From contig CM039002.1 of NCBI GenBank assembly GCA_017499595.2, forward strand, positions 1,178,001 through 1,242,000: 64,000 nt of DNA, read 5' to 3'. Under the pieces are notes generated by a model. It made no database searches, was not told where the DNA came from, and saw nothing but the letters and a program-made list of their open reading frames with translations. Below are positions 10,966 through 50,697 of this stretch, one piece after another. The translations under genes were made by a program, and so were the position numbers. This DNA is from Psilocybe cubensis. Taxonomy: Eukaryota. Positions within the stretch are counted from its first letter, which is position 1; the number at the start of each line of letters is the position of its first letter.

Positions 10966-11034
10966 CGATTCTGAGGCGATTCAGCGACGCGATTTCAGGT
11001 CATCAAATCGCGTCGCTGAATCGCCTCTGAATCG
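10966..11034. repeat. 30-bp inverted repeat with 9-nt loop
   Basis: CGATTCTGAGGCGATTCAGCGACGCGATTT-caggtcatc-AAATCGCGTCGCTGAATCGCCTCTGAATCG. One mismatch; 23-bp perfect core 10973-10995/11005-11027. Confidence 0.9.
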
Positions 11035-11236
11035 TCCACTCTGACCTCCCCTAATTTGACTAGAATCTCATTGGTCATTGGAATCGAGTTGCTGAGTCGC
11101 CTCAGAATCATCCACTAGCTTCAACATAATAAGTAGAGGCACGTTGCTTTATCAGAGCACTGCTTTAATTTGCGGATTCAGGGTTGCTCTGGAGGGCGAG
11201 GGCCGCTGTTTAGCGGAGACAGCGAAGACCTATGGG

Positions 11237-26274: not shown

Positions 26275-26993
26275 TTTCAACTGTGGTGGTTGCCTATCTT
26301 TCTCCCGTTTTAAATTTTTTGCGATGCCTTCTTGTAACTTGAAGACGTTGTACTCTTTGGCGTTTTTTCGATATAATCTTTCACAATAGTTGATTAAAGG
26401 TTCATAACTTTGAAATATTCGACGTAAATATCATGATTTTGGGCAAATTTTGGGAACTACATATTTCTGCAAACAGCTCCTTAGTTAAATATCATAACCA
26501 AATCTGAGACACCGAAATTTCACACTGCAAGTACTTATAACCCCGATGGCTTTCCAAAGTTCAACGTGATGGTGTGTCACTTGTCAGATTATGATGATGT
26601 TGAGTTGCAGTGTTGAGTCATTTCTCTGGGTGTCGTGATTAGATGTATGGAATTGTTCGATCGGCGCCCTGCTGTAATCAAAAGGGATGCTAAGCGCTCA
26701 GTATTAAGCATAATGCTAACTTCCGCTTTTAACGGTGGAGAGCGGGGCTCAGAAATCAGGACTCAGAGCGCGTGACCGCAGTCGCGTTCTACCACGTGAC
26801 TAGACTTCTCGATCAGGGGGTTTAAGAGAGTATTAGCTCCATGTTCCCAGCCTCGTTGTACTACTTGATCGTTTCTGTGCTCTAACTCATGCTAGGACAA
26901 TCTTAATCGAAGCAAACAACCCCACAAAACTTTATCAAAGCCTCATCACATATATATAAGTGACTTCATTCCCATCGTCAACAAAGGAACCCC

Positions 26994-28502
26994 ATGGTCC
27001 AACACCCCAAACCGAAATTAAAACCGAACAGGACAGACCCAGTGACTAATCATCAGCAGAAAGAGGAACACTTCGCCACGGAGGGATACGAAAGCAATGG
27101 TTCGGATGATGATAACGCTGAATGGGAGGACGAAGAGATCCACACCTCACAGTACCAGAAAACTCCACTTGTAGCATCAAAGAGCCCACGAACAGGTGGC
27201 GCCGTGAAGACGAGCCTCCGTAAACGCAAGAAAGCAATCCAAACTATCCGTTCTAACAAAGAAACAAACCTCCCATCTACCTCACCGTCACCCAAATCTG
27301 AACTCGATCAACAAGATGCTAAAGAAGAAAACACGTTCATTTCTTACAAAGATATGCAAAATGCAGCAAAAGTGGGCCTTTTCTCCACAGGAAAATACCT
27401 ATATGAGATCTCCGCAACTGTGTTTCGCCTCCTCCGCCCTCTATTTTCACTCCTTGTAGTCCTTCTGGTACTCTCTTTCATCATCGGACGTATCTCGAGC
27501 ACTCTTTATTCCACGTTCTATCCGATCTGCTATATCCCAGGCATCTCAAGTAGTCCTATCTGCCGTCCTTTGGAACCCGTTATCCCGACAGCCAAAAAGC
27601 AAGCTAAATGGCCAGACTTTCCGAAACTGGTCGAGGTTCAGAGTAAAACATTTGAACAGTTGCTAAGTGAGTCTATTGGAGGACCGGCGCTCTCGATGGA
27701 ACTGCAGAGTGCACAAATGGCTACGAAGGACTTGGCGGTCTTGGTGAAGCATAGCTCATTGTCAAGCAAGGACAAACTTGTGGGGATCTTGAAAGATATA
27801 GCTAGTGACGCCAAAGTCGCAGCAGACCAATTGGGAAGGTTGACTGCGAAAGTTGGGGGGTCTGTCGATAACATTATGGCGGCAAATGATTGGGCTTTAT
27901 CGCGAATTGAGGAGGCTAGAGCAAACGAGCCGTCTCCATGGTCTCTTCGTGGGACAGTTCCTTGGATGAAGCCAAAATACACTCTCCATGAGGTGATCAC
28001 AACAACCTTCGACGATGCCATGGACGTAATGTCTCGCCAAATGGAACGACTGATCACTGAAGCCGGGAGTAACCTCCAAAATCTAAACGTCCTCGAAGAA
28101 CGCTTGACAACTTTTTATGATGTCTATCACCGCGAGAACATTGAACAATCGGCTGCTAAAGAGGAGGTCCTTGCCGAGCTCTGGACAATTTTAGGAGGAA
28201 ATCGAGACAGAATACGAAATTTCAATGATAATCTGGAGTTGTTGAAAGGTTTGGCGACGTACAAAAAGGAGGCCATGGCGCATGTTGTCGCGACTTTGAT
28301 GGCATTGCGTGATATGAGGGATGAGATGGAAGATATGAGAGAGCGAGTCGCCGCTCCGCATCTACTTGGAGAAAACGTCCCAGTAGAAGTCCACATAAAG
28401 AGTATTAAATTAGGGCTCGAAAGGCTGAAAGTGGGAAGAATTGAAGCGAGGGAACAGGAGAAAATGAAATCCCACGAAGTGGCTTCGAAACGCGGTTTGT
28501 AG
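26994..28502 (+). CDS. Hypothetical single-pass membrane protein with long helical/coiled-coil C-terminus
   Basis: Intronless 502-aa ORF with a hydrophobic segment (PLFSLLVVLLVLSFIIG), a C-x8-C pair after it and a heptad-like helical tail. Confidence 0.8.
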   Translation: MVQHPKPKLKPNRTDPVTNHQQKEEHFATEGYESNGSDDDNAEWEDEEIHTSQYQKTPLVASKSPRTGGAVKTSLRKRKKAIQTIRSNKETNLPSTSPSPKSELDQQDAKEENTFISYKDMQNAAKVGLFSTGKYLYEISATVFRLLRPLFSLLVVLLVLSFIIGRISSTLYSTFYPICYIPGISSSPICRPLEPVIPTAKKQAKWPDFPKLVEVQSKTFEQLLSESIGGPALSMELQSAQMATKDLAVLVKHSSLSSKDKLVGILKDIASDAKVAADQLGRLTAKVGGSVDNIMAANDWALSRIEEARANEPSPWSLRGTVPWMKPKYTLHEVITTTFDDAMDVMSRQMERLITEAGSNLQNLNVLEERLTTFYDVYHRENIEQSAAKEEVLAELWTILGGNRDRIRNFNDNLELLKGLATYKKEAMAHVVATLMALRDMRDEMEDMRERVAAPHLLGENVPVEVHIKSIKLGLERLKVGRIEAREQEKMKSHEVASKRGL

Positions 28503-29594: not shown

Positions 29595-31295
29595 TCATTT
29601 AGCTTTTGGATATTTCTGACTGCATACCTTCTTGTGAATGGATTTCCAATGACTCTGAAAACAACAAGTTAACGTCAACGGAAGCACGCTGGGAGATGAA
29701 TTGCACCGACCTTTTGATGTTCACGAGAACAATACCTGAGATAAAAAATCAATTTGGTGATACAAAAAATGCGCATATATTCCATACATCACTTGCTGGC
29801 AACCAGCGCAAGCCTTTAGCTGCACCTCGGAGGATGCGGGCTTTCCGCAAAAGCCACATACAGCTTCCTTGCGGGCGTCTCTCTTCGTGGAGACAGTCTC
29901 ATTCCAAAATCCATAATTTTCCATGTCGTGCGAATTGACAATTGTCTGACCTTTCTTCAGATGTTGTTGATCCATTTGGTTGATAATGTGCTCAGCGCCT
30001 GGCATGATAGGCATATGGAACTTCTTAGCTCCAGAACGAACAGAGGTTGTGCTGCTCAAAGCTTCTGCGACTCTTGCCTTTGCAGCATCGAGGTCAAAGA
30101 CCGCAGGGTCGACCAATGAGGGTGGCTTTCCAAATGAATTGTAGTTGGGAGTGGCAAGGATCTCCCTTTTCATTTCTGCTCTGACAGATATTCAGTTTTG
30201 CGTCAGTCAGTTAAAAGGATGGACCTTACTGTCTGCTATACGACGCAGAGTCGAATTCATCCAGAAAGTCAGCATACTGTAAATTTCCATGCAAATTTTC
30301 TGGACCAAGCATTTAGAGTAATGTCACACTTATTGATTAAACAGTACACCATACCTCCTGGGCACATTCCTTTACCTTCAATCACTTCTACAGATCCAGA
30401 AGATTCTTCTTGAGGTATAATTTTGACAATCTAAGTCGGATTAATTTAATTGTCGTTAGGCCATACAAAATTGTCTGTGCACCTCAATTCTGTGATACCA
30501 TTTATCGCCGTAGTCATAGAGGTAGCCTATTTGATCGCCTGCTTTTCCAAATAGGTGTGCAAGCTTGTACCTGGGAAATATGTGAAGACATTGCGACAAA
30601 GAAATCAAAATACAAAATAGTGACTCACATATTGTCGGACAAGTATTTGTAACCAACCTATGAAAATGCATATAAGTAGCTATTTTGGCAAGTGATGAAG
30701 TATATAATACTTGAGCTATGTGGACTTGATCGATTGAACCCGAGCCCTGGTATTTCGATGTAAAAAAAGCATGGCATTGAAAGCGATCTCGACACGAAAC
30801 ACACCTCTGGACCAAACATTGCCCCATCTCTGAAGTCCGTCAACGTATAGGAATGGAAATTTCTAACCCTGTGCCAATTACGGATATTACTTCGAGAATG
30901 ACAGAAAAGATTACATACCACCCCATGACTGGCGCGATGACTTTGTCCTGAAAGACGCTGAGGCTTATCCCAGCCGAAACCTTGAATAGACGCCACACAC
31001 GATGCTCCCCGTTTCGATCAATCAAACCTCTAGGTTGAAGAAATCAGTGGTTGATGCAGCAGAGCAACCTTAAGCGGAAACTTGGACTTACGGGAGGTAT
31101 ATACGACAAAGGACATCACATCTGTCAAGTCCCTTGAGATCCAGACTTTCCAATTGTTTCTTCTGTTTGTTGTATGAAGCGCAGCTTTTGAATTTGCAAA
31201 AGTAGAAGATAACATACCTTTCTTTCAAGGAGAATGTCCATGAATTGATTTTCAGGGCTTTTGTTATCCCCCCAGTAAAATGTCTGATAAGTCAT
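29595..31295 (-). CDS. pRiA4b ORF3-like (MM3350-like) domain protein with C-terminal zf-MYND
   Basis: Spliced reading MTYQTFYWGD...VWRLFKVSAGISLSVFQDKVIAPVMGW..HSYTLTD...YLYDYGDKWYHRIEV...EGKGMCPG, then CGFCGK...LKACAGCQQVMYC...HWKSIHKKVC. Stop TGA at 29597-29595. Confidence 0.8.
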
Positions 31296-33133: not shown

Positions 33134-33392
33134 TGTGACGGGGCGCGTTATTCACACGGGTCCCGGCACACTGTCGAAGCTCAAATGACTGGATAAAGTG
33201 GTCTATTCAAGCTCCGTCCTTCTACCTACTCTACCTACTGCTTATATACCTTACTGTAGTACATACGTCATAGATAGAATAATGAGAGAAATATCAAATA
33301 CGAAACTTGTGGAAAGCGATAGAAAACTGTGTCGCTCCGGCACGTCCATGCCGGATATGCTCGGCATTCCCTATTAGGATGCCGCCGTCACA
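33134..33392 (-). repeat. 3' LTR (259 bp)
   Basis: Identical by eye to 35712-35970. TG...CA termini with an 8-bp terminal inverted repeat; TATATAA on the minus strand. Confidence 0.95.
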
Positions 33393-35544
33393 TACGCCCT
33401 CCAGGCATTCCAAAGGAATGACTTATGTCGCCGCTTTCATGGGTGAACTCGATAGGGCAAGATTTCTGACACTCGATACCTTGTTTAACCAAAGAATCTG
33501 CATCAAAAAGGGATGTAGCAATTTTCTCCGGCTCGAGGTCAACATCTTCATCCTGAAGTTGGGCTGTCACGGTTTGTGCAAGTTGTGTCCACCCGCCCTC
33601 CAAATCTTCGGATACGAGGATTTGATTAACGTGTAATTCGCTCAGTTCAACATTAGTTCCTTGTGAGGCCGTAGTATCAATAGCAGAGTGGTCACTGTAA
33701 CTGTAAATATCTGTGTTCAACCCTGTGTCTGCAATGTCACACATAGCCACTTCAACTTCCATGAAATATGATCCCAAACCACTGGCAGTCTGGTCTGTTG
33801 CTCCATGGTGCTCATTCTCGCTATTACTATCGAGCTCACGGTCACGGTTGCTTACACTCGGTGACTCGTTATATGTAGACGAGATGTTTCGGCGAACATT
33901 CCTGCAGTGACGTCCGATATGCCCAGTTTTCCCGCATCTGTAGCATTTAATTTGGGCATTTCGGACATATCCGCTAGCTTTCACATTTGAATCCTGAGGT
34001 AAAGCTAACACCTTGTCTTCCTTGTCTTGATCTGAGTCATCATCTGTTCCCCCCGATGAAAGTTGACCATGATCACTGTCACTCGGCTCGTCGTCATTAT
34101 TTACACCATAGTTGTTATCATGTGTCTTGTAGTCATATTTACCAGAAACATAGTATTGCTTATTGTATTTTATATATTGTCGTTGATTTCTTTCAATTTC
34201 ATGCGCAACTTCATAGCGAGTAGCAATTCTAATGACTTCATCCCATGTATTTTGCTCGTAGTCGAGTCCTTCCTTCCAAAGGGCGGATTGTAATTCAGGT
34301 TTCAATCCGTTCCACAAACGATCTACGCGTTGCGAAGGAGTAGACTTTCCCACAATGCGGAATAAAATCAATAATTCGGCAGCATACTCAGCCACAGTCA
34401 TTGATCCTTGAGAAAACTTCTCGAGTTTCTTTCTTTGTTTCAGTCTGTAATCGGGTGGGAAGCAATAATTATAAAGTTCAGTAAAGAATCGTTGCCTGTC
34501 CCAGGAGTCTACACTTATGGACACCATTGTAGAGTAGAATTTGTATGCTTTTCCGGCGAGGTAATCAGCACATTTCACTACTTGATCCTGGGGAGGTAAT
34601 GCAGCCTCTTTACAAAATCTGTCACACTGAGTAATGTATTTGTAAAATTTCATAAAGTCTGCATCGCCATGATACTTATCCGGGGCTGTAGGCGGTAACG
34701 GTTTGAATCTCGCGGGATTTATTATGTGTCCCTCGGTGTCCAACGGTCCCAGTGCTCGGGCGCTTAACTCGGCATGCTCCTTGCCGCTATTACCTTTCGG
34801 GTTGGCCAGAAGCTGTCCGAGTAAACTTTCCGCGGGTAACTGGTTGCTAGGCTTAATAGCCTCTGTCCGTCTAGCCTGCGTTTGTTGACGCGCCGCTTGC
34901 GTGATAAGATCTTCGACATCATGAGACATGGGAGTGGTGGATATACCACGTCTCTCAGTTTTCGGTTGAACTTCAATGGATTGATATCGTCTCGTATATG
35001 CCTTCTTCATTTCAGTGAGTTTCCTTTCCATTTCCTGAATTTGTAAGTAATCATTATCAATTGCAATTTCCTGCGATTCTTCGCGACCGTGACTGTTATC
35101 GGAGTCCTCTGGTGCACGGGAAACCTCAAAAATGCTACCATTCATATTAATGGCATTCTCAATTCTACTTAACCTATCCATCAAGGATGTAATGAGTTCC
35201 TTAGTTTCAGTAACAACAGTCTGTGCATCATTCACAGAGCTTCTATAGACACTATTAATCTCAGTGTCTACCATATACCTATTAAAACTATTCAAGCTTA
35301 AGCTTCTACGAGCGCGCCTGGCTGCAGCGGCTGCGCTCCCGGTGTTGTTTGGATTATTCCCGCGGTGGTCATCCCGACCACGCGCGCCGCCTTCCTCCAT
35401 TCCGGTAGGCAAGGCTTCCTGCTTGGGGTCGTCACCTCTCGAAGCAGGGGGATCCCGGTCAGACCCCGTGGTTGGCACGTCCCTGGCGGCCGTATGACCC
35501 CTCGGTGCTCGACCACTCCTCAACGTGGCTCCTCTAGTAGCCAT
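33388..35544 (-). CDS. gag: Gag polyprotein (718 aa from first ATG)
   Basis: Capsid/retrotransposon-gag-like PDKYHGDAD...YLAGKAYKFY...FSQGSMTVAEY...LWNGLKPELQ and a CCHC knuckle CYRCGKTGHIGRHC. No RT (YxDD), RNase H or integrase. The stop falls within the first 5 nt of the 3' LTR. Confidence 0.9.
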   Translation of the reverse strand: MATRGATLRSGRAPRGHTAARDVPTTGSDRDPPASRGDDPKQEALPTGMEEGGARGRDDHRGNNPNNTGSAAAAARRARRSLSLNSFNRYMVDTEINSVYRSSVNDAQTVVTETKELITSLMDRLSRIENAINMNGSIFEVSRAPEDSDNSHGREESQEIAIDNDYLQIQEMERKLTEMKKAYTRRYQSIEVQPKTERRGISTTPMSHDVEDLITQAARQQTQARRTEAIKPSNQLPAESLLGQLLANPKGNSGKEHAELSARALGPLDTEGHIINPARFKPLPPTAPDKYHGDADFMKFYKYITQCDRFCKEAALPPQDQVVKCADYLAGKAYKFYSTMVSISVDSWDRQRFFTELYNYCFPPDYRLKQRKKLEKFSQGSMTVAEYAAELLILFRIVGKSTPSQRVDRLWNGLKPELQSALWKEGLDYEQNTWDEVIRIATRYEVAHEIERNQRQYIKYNKQYYVSGKYDYKTHDNNYGVNNDDEPSDSDHGQLSSGGTDDDSDQDKEDKVLALPQDSNVKASGYVRNAQIKCYRCGKTGHIGRHCRNVRRNISSTYNESPSVSNRDRELDSNSENEHHGATDQTASGLGSYFMEVEVAMCDIADTGLNTDIYSYSDHSAIDTTASQGTNVELSELHVNQILVSEDLEGGWTQLAQTVTAQLQDEDVDLEPEKIATSLFDADSLVKQGIECQKSCPIEFTHESGDISHSFGMPGGRM

Positions 35545-35711
35545 GGTCTGAACTAATAGCAAAGTTAATACACAAAGAAAGTCCGTCACGACGTACCTGG
35601 TATCCTCGGGTGATCAAGCCGAGGGGGAACGCAATGGTAGATGTCGGCGACGGCGAACGCGAGTTAGAGAGAGTAGAGTAGTGCGATGAGAATAGACGAG
35701 AGTCAAAAATA

Positions 35712-39052: not shown

Positions 39053-40235
39053 ATGCTCCAATTCATTGCTTCAGCTACCACGCTTCTTACATTTATTCTC
39101 GCCGCTTCTGCGATCCCCCAGAGGAGTCCCCTGACTTCTCTTCCCGTCATCACCGACCCTCCCCCGGGCTTCAACATGTACGTGGCCATTGTAGCCTATC
39201 GAATCATTACCGAGAATATCTCGCTAATATATTATCTTCTTTGTGGATCTTAGCACAAGCCTCGGTGTCAACGGATCAGGCTGCCCTCCGGGCTCAACCT
39301 ATTACCTTTTGAGTCGTACGTATGCAAGCTGGTTCCGAGTCGACGCTATTTGCCTAAAAAATATCCAGAGGACAAGAGTTCAGTCACCGTTACCTTCAGT
39401 AAATACTATGCCGAAGTTGGGCCTGGAATCCCAATCAGCGCCAATCGTAAGAATTGCCAACTTACCTTCGGTGTACAGTGAGTATGTCTCCTCGACCACG
39501 ATCAGCATACACTAATATTTTACTTCGAAAATAAGAGTTCCAGGAGGCTTTTCTTTCGGACTTGCAACGGTTGACTATGTAGGTGAACGATATCAAACAT
39601 ACAACACGGTTTAACGAAAGTTCCTCAGAGGGGATACTACCAATTGGACGACAAAGTAACGGCTTCACAACAGTCTATTTACTACTGTGAGCGTCTATGT
39701 TTTTCGTGCTCTCAGAATGACCATACTTACTATCTATATTTTTAGTCCAAGGACAAATTCAACAAGGTTTTTCATAATATATAACACATCCTTTGCGTAT
39801 TATTTGGCATCTAACTACGAGCTTCTAGCTACCGCCAGATCAGATCTCGTTGGCCCCGTAGATGGTATGAGATTTACAGAAATGTTTACCGTATATGTAC
39901 GCTAACCTTTCGCCAAAGGTGCCGACTACACCTATCGTGATTCATTTGACCTTGTTTCAACCGTCCTCTCCCCTTGCGGAGCCAGCACAGTACTCAACGT
40001 CGTGAGCGATGTAAGGGCCAGCAACACCCGAAACACTAAAGGAAGCGGATACATCGCCACGGATTCGGTCAGTATTTTTTGTCAATCTCACGAGATACTC
40101 TGATAAAACTAACCAAATACCCGTTCACCTAGATCGATACCGCACTCAAGCAGGTATGAGAAGCATTTACAGATATGTCTCTCAAGATGCTGATGATGTT
40201 TCTAGACGTATGGATTCCAATGGCAAAAGTGCTAA
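39053..40235 (+). CDS. Secreted DUF4360-family protein (copy 1)
   Basis: Signal peptide MLQFIASATTLLTFILAASA; motifs NGSGCPPGS, RKNCQLTFGV, YRGYYQLD, C-terminal FQWQKC; many short exons. Confidence 0.85.
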
Positions 40236-41054
40236 TTGCTTAAGCGCCCAACCCTGAACCCTGATAAATCTGTTGGTTCATTTAGTATTTTTTCGTTCTC
40301 GATTACGTTTTTTCCAATGTCTGTGTTCTTGTATTAGATACCTCTTGATACACATGTGCCTCTACCCTAAGAGTCGCATTGAATGTATGATCAGCCTAGC
40401 CATCCTATGTTTGAGAGTTCAAGAGCCCAGTGGTCTAAAAATAGAATTACCGCGGATACTTTTGTTCAACATTGGTTTCCGGACAAGGGACCTTGAAATC
40501 AGGTAGTTAGCATACAGCCTATACCCTACTTCCTTTTCTTAAGTTTTAACTGTATCGTGTTGTTCTTTACAACGGTCTGGTACAACATCTACTCGTCTTT
40601 GAGAGGAGAGACACGTCGTTTTCATTCAAATGATCGATTTTTAATGTTCATTTCAATAGAGGACATTAGACGGTATTGGGGAAGCGGATAAAATCAGACA
40701 AAAGGTGTGTATCATAACGGTTTGTTGTGCTGTAGAAGATCCTTCGGCAAAATCTACGGGCACTCGGTTTCAAAGGTGCTTCTTTTTTGTGCCTCGCGGG
40801 TACCAAGATTTTGTTTCCTTAAAATGTTGACTTAATGGAGCTATCAGGCCTACTAAGCAGAATTTCCGAAGTAACACAGATGAGGTCGAGATCTGGCATA
40901 ATCTGTTGCACCTGCTTGTCAAGTCCAATAATCATACTATTGGTGGCAATAGCATGACTTGCTGTTTGTCCTCTCGGACACGATCATTTTTCGGGTATAA
41001 AAAGATGGTCATTCCTCACGATTTCTTTAGTTCTCTTCTCCTCACCTCTTTACA

Positions 41055-42124
41055 ATGGTCAAAACCACATTCACATCTATAATTGCCTTGGCCTTGGGCG
41101 TTACCTCTGTTTTCTCTGCCCCTGCGTCCTCGGTCGCACCTCCTCCGGATTTTGCCGTGTAAGCTTCTTACCTCTCGCTGAATCAATCTGGTGAACTGTC
41201 TAACTCGGATACAGTACTAGCTTTGGCATTAACGGCTCCGGTTGCCCTCCTGGATCCGCTAGCTATTATATTGACGGTTAGAAAGTGCCTTGAGGAGCAT
41301 CTTCATCGTGATAATCCTTCCTCACAGACAACGCCGCCCTCAACGTCGTCTACAGCAGTTTCTACGCAGAGGCGGGTCCTGGAATCCCCATATCTGAAAA
41401 CAGAAAAAATTGCCAGTTGACGCTGGGGGTTCGGTTAGTTAATTCATTTTGGCGATAAATTCCATTTCTTTTATTTAGTAACCGCCTTCCTACTTTACAG
41501 TGTCCCGCAAGGATTCTCGTTTGCACTTGCATCCACTCAAGTTGTAAGTTTATTTCCCTTTGCGCAACCATATGAACCTTTAATGATGATGTACAGAACG
41601 GCTATTATTATCTCGATCAAGGCGTCACGGCTGCCCAAGATACCCTGTATTACTGTGAGTGTTGTTTTATCTAAAATGCATCCTGTTTTAACGTAATGTT
41701 CAGTCCAAGGATCTCTGAGTCAAGGTAATGGCGGTACACATTTTCAGGTGTAATATAGCTCTAAGAAATTACTCAGGCAATGCAACCCATAGAGTAACCG
41801 GCCCGATCCCAGGTATGGGCAAAGCAAAACTTCATGCCTCTCGCGCCTCTTATTAAAAGATAAAACGTCGTTCCAGGGGCCTATTACAGCTACGATTCTT
41901 ACTTTCCCTACACCACCTTCTCTGCATGCGGCACAAGCACTGTTCTAAACATTGGAACTAGCATCAGAGCCAACAACGCCCAAAATTCCAAAGGTAGCGG
42001 ATATATTGCAGCTGACGACTCCAAGGTCAAGCTAACGCAGGTAATAAAAACCATCTTATTGCTCCGATAACTCATACTAATGATTTGCCACAAGCTATTT
42101 AATATTGTATGGAAAACCTGCTAG
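41055..42124 (+). CDS. Secreted DUF4360-family protein (copy 2)
   Basis: Signal peptide MVKTTFTSIIALALGVTSVFS; NGSGCPPGS, RKNCQLTLGV, GYYYLD, C-terminal IVWKTC. Exon structure parallels copy 1. Confidence 0.85.
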
Positions 42125-43442: not shown

Positions 43443-46400
43443 TCACAATGTGGGTATTAGGTCGACACCAGTCCGCAGAGTTTCCTTTGCAACGCCGATC
43501 GCCCAGTTAAGAAATTTGGGCAAGTCTTGATCAGAGCTGGATTTGTCTCTAAAAGATTCCGAGAGGAAGTATACGAGTCCCATGGCCAAAGCCTGTACTC
43601 GGGATGCCTTGATAAAAATCTCCTCGATCACATTTCGATTACGCGTGAAGGTTATATTCTGGGTATCGGTGGTAAGCAGAGGGGTGGCTCGCTGGCTGTT
43701 GATAAAAACTTGTGTGAAAAGCTCTTTTAGGAACCCGTGCGCTCTGGGCTTGAGCATAGTAAAGTCCACAGGCTAAAATTTACACAACCAGATTTTAATC
43801 AGATGATTGGAGGATGAAAATTGAGATATGTTACCTTAAAAATCATCAAAGTCAGGCAGTCCTTGGCAATCCACCACGCATAAGCTTTGGCCACGTTTTG
43901 CAAGCGAACATCTGATACACTTTTGAGATTGAACCCGTCGTCTTCTTTGATGTTCTTGATCACAGCGGCCCCGCCCACTGTTGTTTCGCCAAGGTCTCGC
44001 AGAAAGTCCCACAAGCTAAATTGTAACGTTATTCTGTAGGCGTGTGATGTTCGACATAACTGCTGGCAGACAAGGGTGTAATACGGATTATAAGATCTTT
44101 CCTGTAATCGCCAGGTAAGTTCATGCAGATACAGTAGATGATCAGACCTGTACATTGCCACAACAGTGCAGGATGACCCGAATGATTTCGCGTTGCTGAA
44201 TCTCTGTAAGGTTAAGTTGAGACAGGCGTTCACATGCATCCACGTAATCCTAATTGACCGGCACCTTTAGCACGAAAGACAATGCTGGGGGACTTGTGCG
44301 GACTCACATCGCTGCTCATTAGAACCACGAAGATGCCCCGACGAATATCAGTATTCATTCCTTGAGATCGAGCGAGTTTGATAAGATCAGCCGATTCACT
44401 GCTCATCTCGATTGCTTCCTGTGCCTGTGCTGCAGTGGATTTTGCGAATTCATCGTGTTTTTCAACTAAAGGGTCCCCTTGCCACGCAGCACCAACCAGC
44501 CACCATTTGCCTTTTGTTTCAGAAGAATGAAGGTCTTCAAGTGACACGCGTAGAGGTTCATGCGCCAGGACTATGATTTACACCGATTGAGAGTCAGGAA
44601 CAATGGACGATAACTTGCCAGAAACATACCGTGCTTCGTTTTGCTGAGACCCGAGAGAAACTTTTTCATCCTTTCAACAGCCGCACTGCCCTGGTTCTGG
44701 GTAGTGTTCCTTTTAAGTTTGTTGTTCTTGAGGTTTGTCAGAGTCTCAACCATGAAACGGGTACGGGAGCTGCTAAGGATTAAGCATAATAGTAAAAGGA
44801 AGATGATAAATTGTCTTTCCTAACGGAGTCGTCTTTCGACGTTATTTTGCCTTGAACAATATCAATAATGTCTTTCAGGGCGGAAGGATCATCCTGCCTG
44901 AGTTGCTGTCCGGAATCTAGAGGATTACTTCAGCCACCATGTCAATGCGATGTCGAAATATGAATACACACTCCGCACAATCTTCAATAGCAATTCAACT
45001 GAAACTTCGGTTAATTCGTCTGCGAGAAGGGCTCGGATAATATCGAAGACAAGCACAGCAGAGACAACCTGAAAGTTGTACAACTCCGAGATCAATACAA
45101 GGAGATTGGAACATTCTTTCCCATTATTTTCGATGTCGGTTGAAACAGAGGAACGTAGTTCTTTATATCGTTGTTCGTAAGAAGACACAGTAGCCTGGAC
45201 GAAATGGGCAGCTGCATACAATCAGTAATACGACCAAGATGATTTGTAATGAGTTTGTACCGAATTCGATCCCTACGACCTTGTACAAGGATGAAACAAA
45301 TGCTGCGTAAATAACGACGTACGAGTCAAGGAGAGAAGAATGAGAAGATATTCCGTTGATAATAAGTGTTGTTGTGGTCGAGGTCACGTCTGATATTCAA
45401 TGGACTTTTTTATTACTTGAGAAAAAGGGTGCTGAATCAAGTCTTACCATTCCTACGGTGTTCCCTATAAACGCCCTCAAAACTATCCACAATCGATGCA
45501 ATGTTTTGTTCAGTCATCCTAAAATGAGTGAGTATATTAAATAGACCAGATACACAAATCCATACCTATTTAGAAGACCTTTAAGCTGCCTCGTCAGTTT
45601 TTGAATCTCCTCTGAGTCAGCTTTTTGTGCGGGTTGGGTGTTACGTAGGTGCGGAGGTATATATGCGCCTTTTCGTAATATTTGTCACTAGAGAACGATG
45701 ATAGAAATAGTTAGCAATGCGGACCTTTTGGGGGTGGAGTCGGTGCAGGTGGAGCGGTGGTTTCTCCTTCTGATTCTGTTACAGATTCTTCGTCGCTATC
45801 ATCGTGGCCGACACCATGCCACTCCTCTTCTTCAAAATCATTTCCTTCGGATTCATTTAAGTATTCCGATTCTGGTGTTTCGTCCTCTTCGTCTTCGCTA
45901 TCGCTTTCGTCTTTCTCGTCAATGGCTTTTGACTGATATTTATTTTAACGACTGGAATGGAATAGGAATGAAATGTTATAGTTACCACTTACCTCAGAGT
46001 GCGATGGCAGGAAAGAATCAGCCCAATCCATTAGATCTAGATGAAAGCATAAGCAACGAAGCATGGATCAAGACGGTTTGGACAGATACCGTCGAGTCCG
46101 TCATCTTCTTCAGCACTTTTGATCTTTCGCTTTGCACCTCTTTTGATACCGAGCTTAGACTCTAAAAACGCGATATATTTGTCTTCCTTATCCTCTGCAA
46201 GTGTTTTTTGGACCAGCACTTTTTTTGGCACTTTTGGAACAGCTGAGGTTTTCGGAAGTTTGGAAGGAAGAGGTTCAACGACAGGTTTTGAATGGGAAGG
46301 ATCGAGTTTCTGAGTTGAAAGAGGCAAGACAGAAGGTGTTTTTTCCACTTTGCGGTTGGAGTGATTTTGAGGGCCGGTCTGGCGGACTTTTTTATGCTGA

Positions 46401-46683
46401 GGTGATTCCGCGTGCTCTTCCTCAGCGGCTCTTTTCCTCAAATTTTTTGCTTGAGCAAAGTATTCTGCTCGTTTTTGCTTTTCAATAGCACGCCCTTTCT
46501 TCCTAGCTTCCTTGCGAGAACTATGGGAGAAGCGCCAATTCTGTGGCTGATCATTTGCTGAATGGCATTGAGGACTTCCAAAAGTTGCATCCTGACATCG
46601 AAAAACTTACCAGTAATTCCTTCTAGTTGCTGCTGTAAGATTTGGGGCAGCTTTGTAGTCGAAGTTTTCTTCCGAATAGGCAT
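43443..46683 (-). CDS. SGD1: Nucleolar MIF4G/MA3 protein Sgd1/NOM1
   Basis: Acidic/basic N-terminus, QLKGLLNRM, ELYNFQVV, RFMVETLTNLKNNK, KGKWWLVGAAW, MNTDIRRGIFVVLMSS, YNPYY, TLQFSLWDF. Confidence 0.92.
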
Positions 46684-46857
46684 AGCGCTTGAGCTAATCC
46701 CAATAATTGAGATTTACTAGTACACGGAGAACGATGGGCGAGAGTGAAGAGGTTACGAGAGATGGAAGGGAAGCTAAAATTAGGGTTCACATTGATTCCG
46801 CTTTTGTGGAACTAGCATCCCGGTGCTTCTGAGGCCTCGGTTGGAAGGGCATTCATC

Positions 46858-46957
46858 GGCCTAATGGTCTAGTAGTATGATACGCGCTTCGGGTTCTACC
46901 CGCATCGTCATGGTGCTTAGATGTGCGTGGTCCCGGGTTCAATTCCCGGTTGGGCCC
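46858..46957 (+). tRNA. tRNA-Pro(CGG) with 28-nt intron (46894-46921)
   Basis: Acceptor GGCCTAA/TTGGGCC, anticodon stem CGCGC/GTGCG around TT-CGG-G, T-arm CCGGGTTCAATTCCCGG, downstream T run. Confidence 0.9.
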
Positions 46958-47032
46958 TCTTTTTCTACATGTTACCAAAAACCCTCCACCCTACGTGTGT
47001 CTATAATAACACAAAGATCAAGCCTTCATGAA

Positions 47033-47103
47033 GCATTGGTGGTGTAGCGGTAACATTGGGTCTTCCCATGGCCTAGCTCCGGGTTCGACTCCCGGCCAAT
47101 GCA
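47033..47103 (+). tRNA. tRNA-Gly(CCC), intact
   Basis: Acceptor GCATTGG/CCAATGC, A box TGGTGTAGCGG, anticodon loop TTCCCAT, T-arm CCGGGTTCGACTCCCGG, TTTTT terminator directly after. Confidence 0.92.
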
Positions 47104-47192
47104 TTTTTGGGCTGCCATTCTGGGCATTCTGGAGCCAGTTTTCCGGGAGCTCACAACTAAAATTCAAAACCGAGTTTACCCAGCCTTCGTAT

Positions 47193-47855
47193 GCATTGAT
47201 GGTGTAAGATTGGGCTCATCAGGAACCAGCACCCCCTTAGGTAAGCAAAAGTTGGCTTACCTCCGAACCTTTTCAGCCCTTCTGCACTCACACTATTCTA
47301 CATTTTTGAACCACAGATATGTAGATTATGCTTTTTTGAACACATCTGTGGTTTTTTTTTCAAAAAAATTTTGATTTCAAGAAGTTATAAAGATTTTAAT
47401 TTTTTTCCCTTTTTTTTACTCTAACACATCAGAAATGGTGTTTTCTCGAGTTTGGGAGATTTTCGAAAATTTGACAATGTTCTTTTGGCCGCTTATATAA
47501 TGATGCACGTGACTACACGTGACAGTAAGTCACGCCTAAGTAATACCTCTCAGACTCATTATAGACTTGCAGAGAATACAATTTGACCTCTGAGGTTTAT
47601 TTCTATTATTGTGGGCATAAAGGCTAGTAGTAAGGAATGTATATGCACATTTATGAAATTTTTTTTCAAAAATTTTTTGTCTGAAAACATTTTCCGTCAA
47701 CATAACTTTTGATTTTTTTTCGAGCTGGATTTTGGCCGCTCTTGGCGCCAAGCCCGTTGATTACGTAAGGGTGCTGGTTCCTGATGAGCCCAATCTTAGC
47801 GGTAACATTGGGTCTTCCCATGGCCTAGCTCCGGGTTCGACTCCCGGTCAATGCA
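47193..47855 (+). pseudogene. tRNA-Gly(CCC) second copy, split by a TIR element
   Basis: 5' piece GCATTGATGGTGTA (47193-47206) and 3' piece (TA)GCGGTAACATTGGGTCTTCCCATGG...CCGGTCAATGCA (47797-47855) rejoin to a full cloverleaf. Confidence 0.92.
47207..47796. mobile_element. 590-bp MITE-like non-autonomous DNA transposon
   Basis: Perfect 28-bp TIRs AGATTGGGCTCATCAGGAACCAGCACCC (47207-47234 / 47769-47796), extending imperfectly to about 42 bp. TA duplicated on both sides; AT-rich non-coding interior. Confidence 0.92.
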
Positions 47856-48299
47856 GACGTTTGTTTTGTTTTTGTGGCAAGAAGTCCTCTTCGAACGATC
47901 CGTAAGGCCTTCCTTCCCTTCCAATATTTTTAAAACATGTATAGAGTTCTTAGCCAACCCAATGTCTTTAAGTTTAAATTACAACGGCAGTAGTACGCTC
48001 CAAAACGAGTGATAAAAGAATGTCATGAAACAAACTAGCAAGAAATAAGTCAGAACAAAAGAGAGCTGAGCAGTACTACGGTAAGTTGCGATAAATCCTA
48101 GGTAAAATTGTATAAATAAGCGTTGGCTAACTTCAAACTTAAGACGGTGAAAAGTCTTTTTCTTGAAGAGACACGGGCAATGATTGTCCGATGATTGGAA
48201 ATGTGGATAGGGAGGGATTCGGTATTTTGGATGATATGTGGGTAGAGGGGGATGTAGATATGACTCCAACGTTGTACTCTGTACTAATCAGTGAAGTAA

Positions 48300-50697
48300 T
48301 CAGGGAGACTGGCAGTTTGGGATTTTTATTCCGTTCTTCAGGGTTCGGCTGTCGTGGATCTGGTAAGCAAAGTAGTTATACATTCACAACACCAGAAAGA
48401 CTCACTCTTGATTGAAAAGTCCCCACCATCCTTCGACACCGCCGAATTGCTTGTCCTAGACAGGAAGGTACCGTCAGTACGGGATATCACTACAGAACCG
48501 TATAGCATCAGTCAACTGACTTTCCAGTCCTCATCAGCGAACTAAATACACAAAGGTCAGCTTAGTTCTCGCCAGACAGTGTCAAAAACCCACTTCGAAG
48601 AAGAAGTATTGTGTACCATTCGCGTTAGCCTGGCATACAAAGGTGTCAAGGAATGTCTACCATTCAAAAATAGATTAGCATTTCGATCAAACGGCGGGCT
48701 TGAACGACCGACCTGGAGACCGGCAACAGATGCGGGTGATCCTCCCAGTGAATTGGCGTGAGCAGCATCCGATGATTTCTGCGCAACCAAAGTAAAACAA
48801 AATCAGAATCATCGGAAAAAATGAAATTCAAACTCACAGTTGGCCATCCAGTCTCAGCGATATACATCTGCGGCCTGTTAGGCAAGGTGTTAGCTAAATC
48901 CACATCCTGGTTCTGGAAGAAGTCAGCTGTCCAAGCAGCAGATGCGTCAACAGTAACACCATCTGCAAACCAAGGATGCACATTTGCCATCTAATATGGA
49001 GTAGGTAAACGCTGCATATCGTTTGATAAAAGGAAAAGCGCACTCCGTAGTCAACAGCCTCCAAGATTTTATTATTAAAGTAGCTACCAGCATCGGAGTT
49101 ACCCACGGGGATGCTGACACCTAATGATTGAAGCATGGCTCGAGTATCCTGAATATCAGGAACCAAGATGGCAGCGGCCTGGTCACCCTGTGCGCTGTTG
49201 GGGTCTTGATTACCGTTTGTTAGGAAGCTTAAGCGAAAGGTTAATTTGTCAGTATAAGATAGAAACACACGGGAGTGCGACTCACTTGAGAACAAATTCG
49301 TTTCCAACAGTGATTCCTCCGATGTTGTCCGTGCCATACGTTTGAATGGCTTGTTTGATGGTGTCTCGTTGGCGGTTGTATGCCGCATTGTTATCCGTCG
49401 CAATTACATAGTTTCCTAACCAAACTTTCATGTTGACCTTGGTTTGCTTAATCGCTTCAAGCTGTAGTCAAATATCAGTTATGATGGGGTCAACGGTAGA
49501 TGCCCCAAGATGCACATACCACCAAAGCAGATTGATTGCAGTCAGCACCATAAAGGCGGATACGCTGAAAGACAAAAAATGCATAAAGATTGGAAGTTGA
49601 GCATAATCTTGAAATAAATGTACGCACAGTAGTTAATTGCGACATGATCTTGAGCACGATTGAGTTGGTGATCTAAAAATAGACGCTGGTAACACACCTG
49701 GATGTCTTGGATCACGGCAGCTGTTTATGTACAAAATCATTTCGTTTAGTCACTTTGAACAAATCCTGATACAGCAACGCCCGCGATGCCCACCTAAAGA
49801 GTTTCCACAGTCCGGCGTCTGCGAACCAACCGGAGTGTATGCCATCCCCCAGAATGCTTGATGGAAATTTGGGTCTTTGGTGAACTTGCTCGGATCGCCA
49901 GGATCTGTCTGTTGCACAGTAGAGTTTGACGAGACTCCAGAGACAGACGAAGACAAGTTGTTGTTGTTTTTCTTGTTGTGGGACACAACAATCCCAACTG
50001 CAATGGCAATGACAGCAATACCTATCAAACCGACAATGGTCCCCATAATCTATGGTTAAAGAAATACTTGAGACCCCCGCTATGACTGTAACCGGAAGAC
50101 GACGCTTACGATCCACATTTTACGCTTTCCCTTCGGGGGCTGAGGCTCCATCCACCTTGACCCTGGGGTGTAGGCTCCTAGTTTGGGCTCGCTGCTTCCT
50201 ACATGGTTCACTGAATTCAAGTCACTGTACCCTCCCGGTGCAGCCATGCCTTGCCTACTCGGCGGAGGGGTTCCGAATGGATTTTGGGACGCCAGATTGT
50301 CGGTGGATTCTGCAGAGAAAGGTTGATTTGCACCCAACGGTGTATAGGTCCCAGAACCTGAGGCAGCCGTGGGTCTCAGTGGGATGTTGTTGAAGCCTGC
50401 TTGAGATCGCCCTGCGTTGGAAGGTGACCGACTGGTCTGTAAAAGAGGGTGGGAGAGGTTAGAAACAAGGCTCCGAAGAGGGAAGGCAACTTGAAAAGCT
50501 ATGACGATCGGTCAGCCGGCCGCACGCAATAGTGTGGCCTCAAATGGCCGTGTAGTTGAACAAAGCGGCACGTTATGGATTCAAAATGAAAGCTCCAAGT
50601 ACTCAAATAGCCACGACAGGACACTGACTTGGTAGTATTCGTTGAGATCTGATGAACTTTGATTTGGTTCAAACGGATTGTCGCGATATGCCTGCAT
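48300..50697 (-). CDS. Membrane-anchored GH17 beta-1,3-glucanase/transglucosylase (BtgC-like)
   Basis: Disordered N-terminus, TM GTIVGLIGIAVIAIAVGIVV, FWGMAYTP, RLYGADCNQ, ITVGNE, MANVHPWF, IAETGWPT, GVEGWWGLF. Confidence 0.9.

Follow-up and report, generated by a model that had tools for sequence, protein, structure and literature searches.

A TA-specific target duplication is the hallmark of the IS630/Tc1/mariner elements, and many Tc1 and pogo elements carry CAGT-type ends. Short relatives include the mimp elements of Fusarium, which are mobilised by impala, and the plant MITE Stowaway. Among the mobile elements associated with tRNA genes, the retroelements Ty3 and Ty1 of yeast and TRE5-A and DGLT-A of Dictyostelium insert at set distances upstream or downstream of the gene, which is left working. 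Of DNA transposons, only Dada elements are known to us to target tRNA genes. As described by Kojima and Jurka (2013; PMC3706591), these make 6-7 bp duplications and possess no TIRs, only short sub-terminal inverted repeats, and the copies of a family all occupy one site in one and the same small-RNA gene.

Here we describe a 590-bp element inside a tRNA-Gly(CCC) gene of Psilocybe cubensis, within a 64,000-nucleotide stretch of DNA (the window) that was analysed as a whole. The element resembles the Tc1/mariner-derived MITEs mimp and Stowaway in its short non-coding body, TIRs of a similar length (~27-30 bp in this group) and TA duplication, and also in having several near-identical copies and a presence/absence polymorphism between strains. 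It differs in its greater length (mimp elements are ~200 bp), its low copy number (~8) and its end sequence. An association with a tRNA gene is shared with Ty3, Ty1, TRE5-A and DGLT-A, but in this case a TIR DNA element has broken the gene that it entered, and no second case near a tRNA gene was seen. As with Dada, a DNA transposon sits inside a tRNA gene; in contrast to Dada, the duplication is the 2-bp TA, the inverted ends are perfect over 30 nt, and the other copies lie in unrelated flanks. Membership of a Dada family was therefore considered and rejected, as neither the longer duplication, nor the lack of TIRs, nor the one fixed site given for Dada in PMC3706591 is found here. The original prediction had set Dada apart on the first two of these features, in agreement with that paper. 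Our preferred reading, to which we give a probability of roughly 0.78, is that a low-copy, non-autonomous Tc1/mariner-type MITE recently inserted by chance into the downstream member of a tandem pair of tRNA-Gly(CCC) genes.

The affected gene belongs to a small tRNA cluster on the + strand (46858-47855), in which a tRNA-Pro(CGG) gene is followed by one intact and one split tRNA-Gly(CCC) gene. The features of the cluster are as follows:

46858..46957, + strand: tRNA-Pro(CGG) gene with a 28-nt intron, first in the cluster (Rfam RF00005, 42.4 bits; ARAGORN with introns allowed)
47033..47103, + strand: intact tRNA-Gly(CCC) copy 1, with G7-C66 and a TTTTT terminator after it (ARAGORN; Rfam, 52.2 bits)
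47193..47206, + strand: 5' piece of tRNA-Gly(CCC) copy 2, comprising the acceptor 5' strand with A7 and the start of the A box through T13-A14 (sequence, ARAGORN and empty-site joint)
47797..47855, + strand: 3' piece of tRNA-Gly(CCC) copy 2, comprising the remainder of the A box, the anticodon arm, the B box (47834-47844) and T66 (repeat comparison, ARAGORN and empty-site joint)
47864..47873, + strand: T runs (TTTT, TTTTT) 3' of copy 2, the terminator to be expected from general knowledge of Pol III

The 5' piece of copy 2 is 14 nt long and has one mismatch to copy 1, while the 3' piece, at 59 nt, is 98% identical to it. The element entered at the TA of tRNA positions 13-14, which belongs to the A box (TGGTG-TA-GCGG); of the duplicated TAs, the left one lies at 47205-47206 and the right one at 47797-47798. 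When the two pieces are joined as in the natural empty allele described below, they form a 71-nt gene that ARAGORN calls as tRNA-Gly(ccc), with an A7-T66 pair, which upholds the original prediction that a formerly functional tRNA-Gly(CCC) gene had been split. The prediction had also pointed to a compensatory pair in the acceptor stem, and the only differences between the two copies are indeed at positions 7 (G/A) and 66 (C/T), which are acceptor-stem partners, so that G7-C66 in copy 1 corresponds to A7-T66 in copy 2. Two random differences in 71 positions would share one of the 21 stem pairs in ~0.85% of cases (21/2485), and would restore pairing even less often. Because the only two differences fall on these pairing positions, which is rare by chance, it is a reasonable inference that both copies were kept foldable.

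The element that separates the two pieces was delimited by comparison of inverted repeats and has the following parts:

47207..47796, no strand assigned: 590-bp non-coding TIR element (MITE), 36% G+C, with many T runs (inverted-repeat comparison; limits from the empty site)
47207..47234, + strand: left TIR, perfect over 28 nt and imperfect to ~42 nt (inverted-repeat and motif searches)
47769..47796, - strand: right TIR (inverted-repeat and motif searches)

Counting the TA, the inverted arms (47205-47234 and 47769-47798) are 100% complementary over 30 nt, that is, the 28-bp TIR plus TA, and they extend imperfectly to ~42 nt at 90%. With up to three mismatches allowed, the TIR 28-mer occurs at exactly two sites in the 64-kb window, where 100 shuffles gave an expectation of 0, and, low-complexity sequence aside, no long inverted repeat of the window other than the arms of 47207-47796 is perfect. 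The element as a whole folds into a long hairpin (z = -7.9). No Pfam family was found in the three stop-free frames of at least 65 aa that overlap it. A match of the element to the Rfam family ARRPOF reached 24 bits where the gathering score is 127.2, and was rejected as chance. Midway along the element (47505-47535), two CACGTG palindromes lie 8 bases apart and are followed by a related GTCACG; the group may represent a binding-site-like motif.

Independent evidence for the limits of the element came from other sequenced samples. A search of sequencing runs gave, among the matches listed, ten runs from three studies that contain the stretch wholly or partly, nine of them with at least half of the sampled words. 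Four of these runs, which carry three coded species labels, were aligned to positions 46300-48700, using the contigs of X1, X5 and X6 (contig sets of 41-46 million letters) and the raw reads of X11. In all four, position 47204 is joined directly to 47797, skipping 592 bases, with TA..CT at the ends and two ambiguous letters. At this joint the locus is seen devoid of the element, with just one TA. The contigs that carry it have depths of 24.4, 39.4 and 5.3, with flanks at 25-27, 37-42 and 10-12, respectively, and in X11 the joint is crossed by 18 raw reads at a flank depth of ~22-43. The empty site thus proves both the 2-bp duplication and the 590-bp limits independently. Together with the repeat search, it confirms the original description of a 590-bp element with 28-bp perfect TIRs and a TA duplication at the TA of the A box; the prediction had further proposed a search for an empty site in other strains, and one was found in four of four runs.

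Two letters of the window copy allowed this insertion to be told apart from other copies of the element. The T at 47376 was seen in 0 of 231 X11 reads and the T at 47597 in 0 of 195, and neither occurs in any contig of X1, X5 or X6. As these letters are absent from all four runs, none of the sampled runs has this insertion. The flanks in the four runs nevertheless match the window at ~99.7% (2 differences in 770 letters; 2-3 differences and one gap in 883). With an empty site in every run and flanks that are nearly identical, the insertion is real and recent, and is either polymorphic or confined to the strain that was sequenced or to its lineage. Copy 2 of tRNA-Gly(CCC) was intact before the insertion, and it is still intact in the four other sequenced samples.

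The same runs gave a view of the rest of the family. Although the site is empty in X11, depth over full element bins (counted at at least 85% likeness) reaches 215-281 in this run, which is ~8-fold above its flanks. Loose ends in X11 fall at 47204/47205 on the left (72 and 102 reads) and at 47798/47799 on the right (97 and 43 reads), and their consensus agreement of 0.44-0.57 at both boundaries, which approaches noise, indicates a mixture of different flanks. Alignments run through the TA and the loose ends start outside it, so the other copies are flanked by TA at both ends. Several distinct strings flanking the element are likewise present in the contigs of X1, X5 and X6. Given an ~8-fold depth in a genome without this insertion, and flanks that are mixed but keep the TA, the family comprises about eight copies per genome at other TA sites.

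These copies are not uniform. Many positions of the element are polymorphic among them, and the family has therefore been diversifying for some time; the window copy departs from the majority at ~8 places, two of which are private. The ends or the middle of the element also occur in some contigs of X1, X5 and X6 that diverge after 47275 or before 47352/47356, one such contig of X5 being 950 nt long. The contigs that share ends are candidates for related subfamilies or for longer, possibly autonomous, relatives.

The original prediction left two explanations for the position of the element, a preference for Pol III genes and a chance hit at a TA, and it is the second that fits best with the heterogeneous flanks of the other copies. 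We consider a chance hit among TA sites most likely, perhaps aided by open Pol III chromatin. The best-surviving alternative, which we nonetheless regard as unlikely, is that the family prefers Pol III genes or their surroundings, with a transposase that reads the A box or tethers to TFIIIC/TFIIIB. In its favour, the TA that was hit is precisely the most conserved one of the A box, and a hit in a tRNA gene would be rare if TA sites were chosen uniformly: at least one would be expected in ~0.15-1% of genomes, for 8-20 copies in a 45-Mb genome with, by assumption, 150-400 tRNA genes (the window contains 3411 TA sites, and each tRNA-Gly gene contains three). This figure is no strong argument for targeting, because the window was picked as striking from a very large scan of windows and insertions; it argues weakly in that direction and would allow for a soft bias of insertion to Pol III genes, which are poor in nucleosomes. 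Loose ends in X11 that start one letter (G) into the window flank, 72 of 174 on the left and 43 of 140 on the right, are slightly more frequent than one in four, which also leans towards a preference.

Set against this, the flanks of the ~8 copies in X11 resemble neither this locus nor one another. The letters of an A box (T-R-G-C-N before the TA and G-T/C-G-G after it) were absent by eye from both the left and the right flanks that could be read from single contigs, none of two on either side carrying them; the flank strings number ~8, are 30 letters each and include several two-contig mixtures, and are not enough to judge nearness to Pol III genes. Depth over the bodies of the two tRNA-Gly genes is not raised. 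Adapted Pol III-targeting elements such as Ty3, Ty1, TRE5-A and DGLT-A, moreover, land beside the gene and are not known to destroy it. The thin evidence thus points against the Pol III preference raised in the original prediction, the flanks being heterogeneous and those shown lacking an A-box context, and dedicated tRNA/Pol III targeting is not supported. The more far-reaching form of this proposal, that the element stands for an undescribed TIR family of the Agaricales with a transposase attracted to Pol III units through the A box or TFIIIC/TFIIIB, with other copies beside tRNA or 5S genes, appears less likely again. If it were true, and the copies clustered at Pol III genes, this would be the first TA-duplicating TIR DNA transposon with a preference for tRNA genes, and would bear on safe-haven integration.

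Setting Pol III preference aside, we return to the chance insertion of a Tc1/mariner-type MITE and to the placing of the element in that superfamily. A TA duplication and TIRs are found on a short, non-coding sequence present in multiple copies at different sites. Because it combines the TA duplication and ~30-bp TIRs with a non-coding, AT-rich, hairpin-forming body and a few near-identical copies, the element is probably a Tc1/mariner-type (IS630/Tc1/mariner) MITE, the superfamily being assigned from the TA duplication and the TIRs by themselves. ISL2EU/IS4EU-type elements of the Repbase scheme also make 2-bp duplications, and a non-autonomous element of such another superfamily is an improbable alternative. 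Its case is that no transposase was seen and that the terminal letters of the element, AGATTGGG, are unlike the CAGT-type start of many Tc1 and pogo elements. The duplication is TA-specific, however, and is kept at the other copies, as is the hallmark of IS630/Tc1/mariner, and the length of the TIRs and the AT-rich, hairpin-forming body suit Tc1/mariner-derived MITEs.

Relatives of the element were sought in several ways. The 64-kb window contains no second TIR pair and no long copy, and no Pfam transposase was found in the window frames that were scanned, which comprised 48 of the 82 frames of at least 110 aa and 143 of the 293 frames of 65-109 aa, the latter being those outside 1-34.7 kb, where the other 150 lie. 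A metagenome scan with a 23-letter TIR pattern gave 0 loci. With a 19-letter pattern, three loci (L001-L003) were returned and rejected as chance, each having a single arm with neither an inverted partner nor further similarity to the element. An exact string search of the literature did not find a 17-letter TIR string, and the literature titles among the matches listed included the Dada papers but named no TA-duplicating DNA transposon with a tRNA preference and no MITEs of the Agaricales.

There is next to no chance that the inserted stretch is a non-canonical tRNA intron or an assembly artefact with no transposon involved: it does lie inside a tRNA gene and occurs once in the window, but its place is in the D-arm and not at 37/38, it has perfect 30-nt inverted ends and a duplicated TA, it is present ~8-fold elsewhere with other flanks while the locus lacks it in four of four runs, and its many runs of at least four T would be expected to stop Pol III.

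Several features of the surroundings were also recorded. The tRNA-Pro(CGG) gene at 46858-46957 was not called by ARAGORN with default settings. In two of the four runs a joint steps back by 101 from 46958 to 46858 (one contig in X6, eight reads in X11), which suggests that other strains have a tandem duplicate of this gene; from consistent loose ends at 46929 and 46964, a further gene at a different place seems to have its 3' part in common with this one. A gene with MIF4G/MA3 domains lies on the - strand upstream of the tRNA cluster. Further away, ~12 kb from the cluster, a 741-aa frame at 33391-35613 (- strand) matches Retrotrans_gag (E = 6.3e-06) and probably belongs to an LTR retrotransposon. 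Three frames at 39254-42067 (+ strand) match DUF4360 (E = 4e-09 to 2e-10), which suggests two adjoining paralogous genes with introns. A 127-aa frame at 30459-30839 (- strand) matches PRiA4_ORF3 weakly, though above threshold (PF07929, 29.3 bits, E = 8.5e-07), and the best named relatives of a 512-aa frame at 26964-28499 are from the Agaricales (Psilocybe cyanescens, 61%; Galerina, Flammula and Cyclocybe, ~50%). An Atlas search likewise indicates Basidiomycota, and the contig to which the window belongs measures 3.68 Mb. At 10966-11109 there is a short structured repeat, a hairpin with 30-nt arms, 97% complementary, around a 9-nt loop; a third arm related to these follows after 81 nt.

In the preferred reading of a recent chance insertion, a transposase encoded elsewhere would have cut at the TA formed by T13-A14 of the A box, and the filling of the staggered ends would have duplicated it, as is known for the superfamily. 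The 14 nt at the 5' end of copy 2 are now separated from the remainder of the gene by 592 bp rich in T runs, and the tRNA of this copy would be lost. Because of this separation, and of the 17 runs of at least four T on the + strand of the element, normal TFIIIC-directed transcription of the full copy 2 tRNA should be impossible. TFIIIC might still be able to bind the 3' piece, which retains the B box and has a junction that partly resembles an A box; the 5' acceptor strand is missing from this piece. Copy 1, together with tRNA-Gly isoacceptors elsewhere, would cover the loss. With an intact copy 90 bp upstream, the loss is probably nearly neutral, and the insertion could for this reason persist.

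The insertion alone reveals no new targeting mechanism. What it provides is a clean and dated knockout of a tRNA gene by a transposon, documented by the filled and the empty allele, by the exact duplication of the TA and by a sister copy that is still intact. Recent activity of a DNA transposon family in this group of mushroom-forming fungi is also evident from it, and the insertion can serve as a presence/absence marker between strains.
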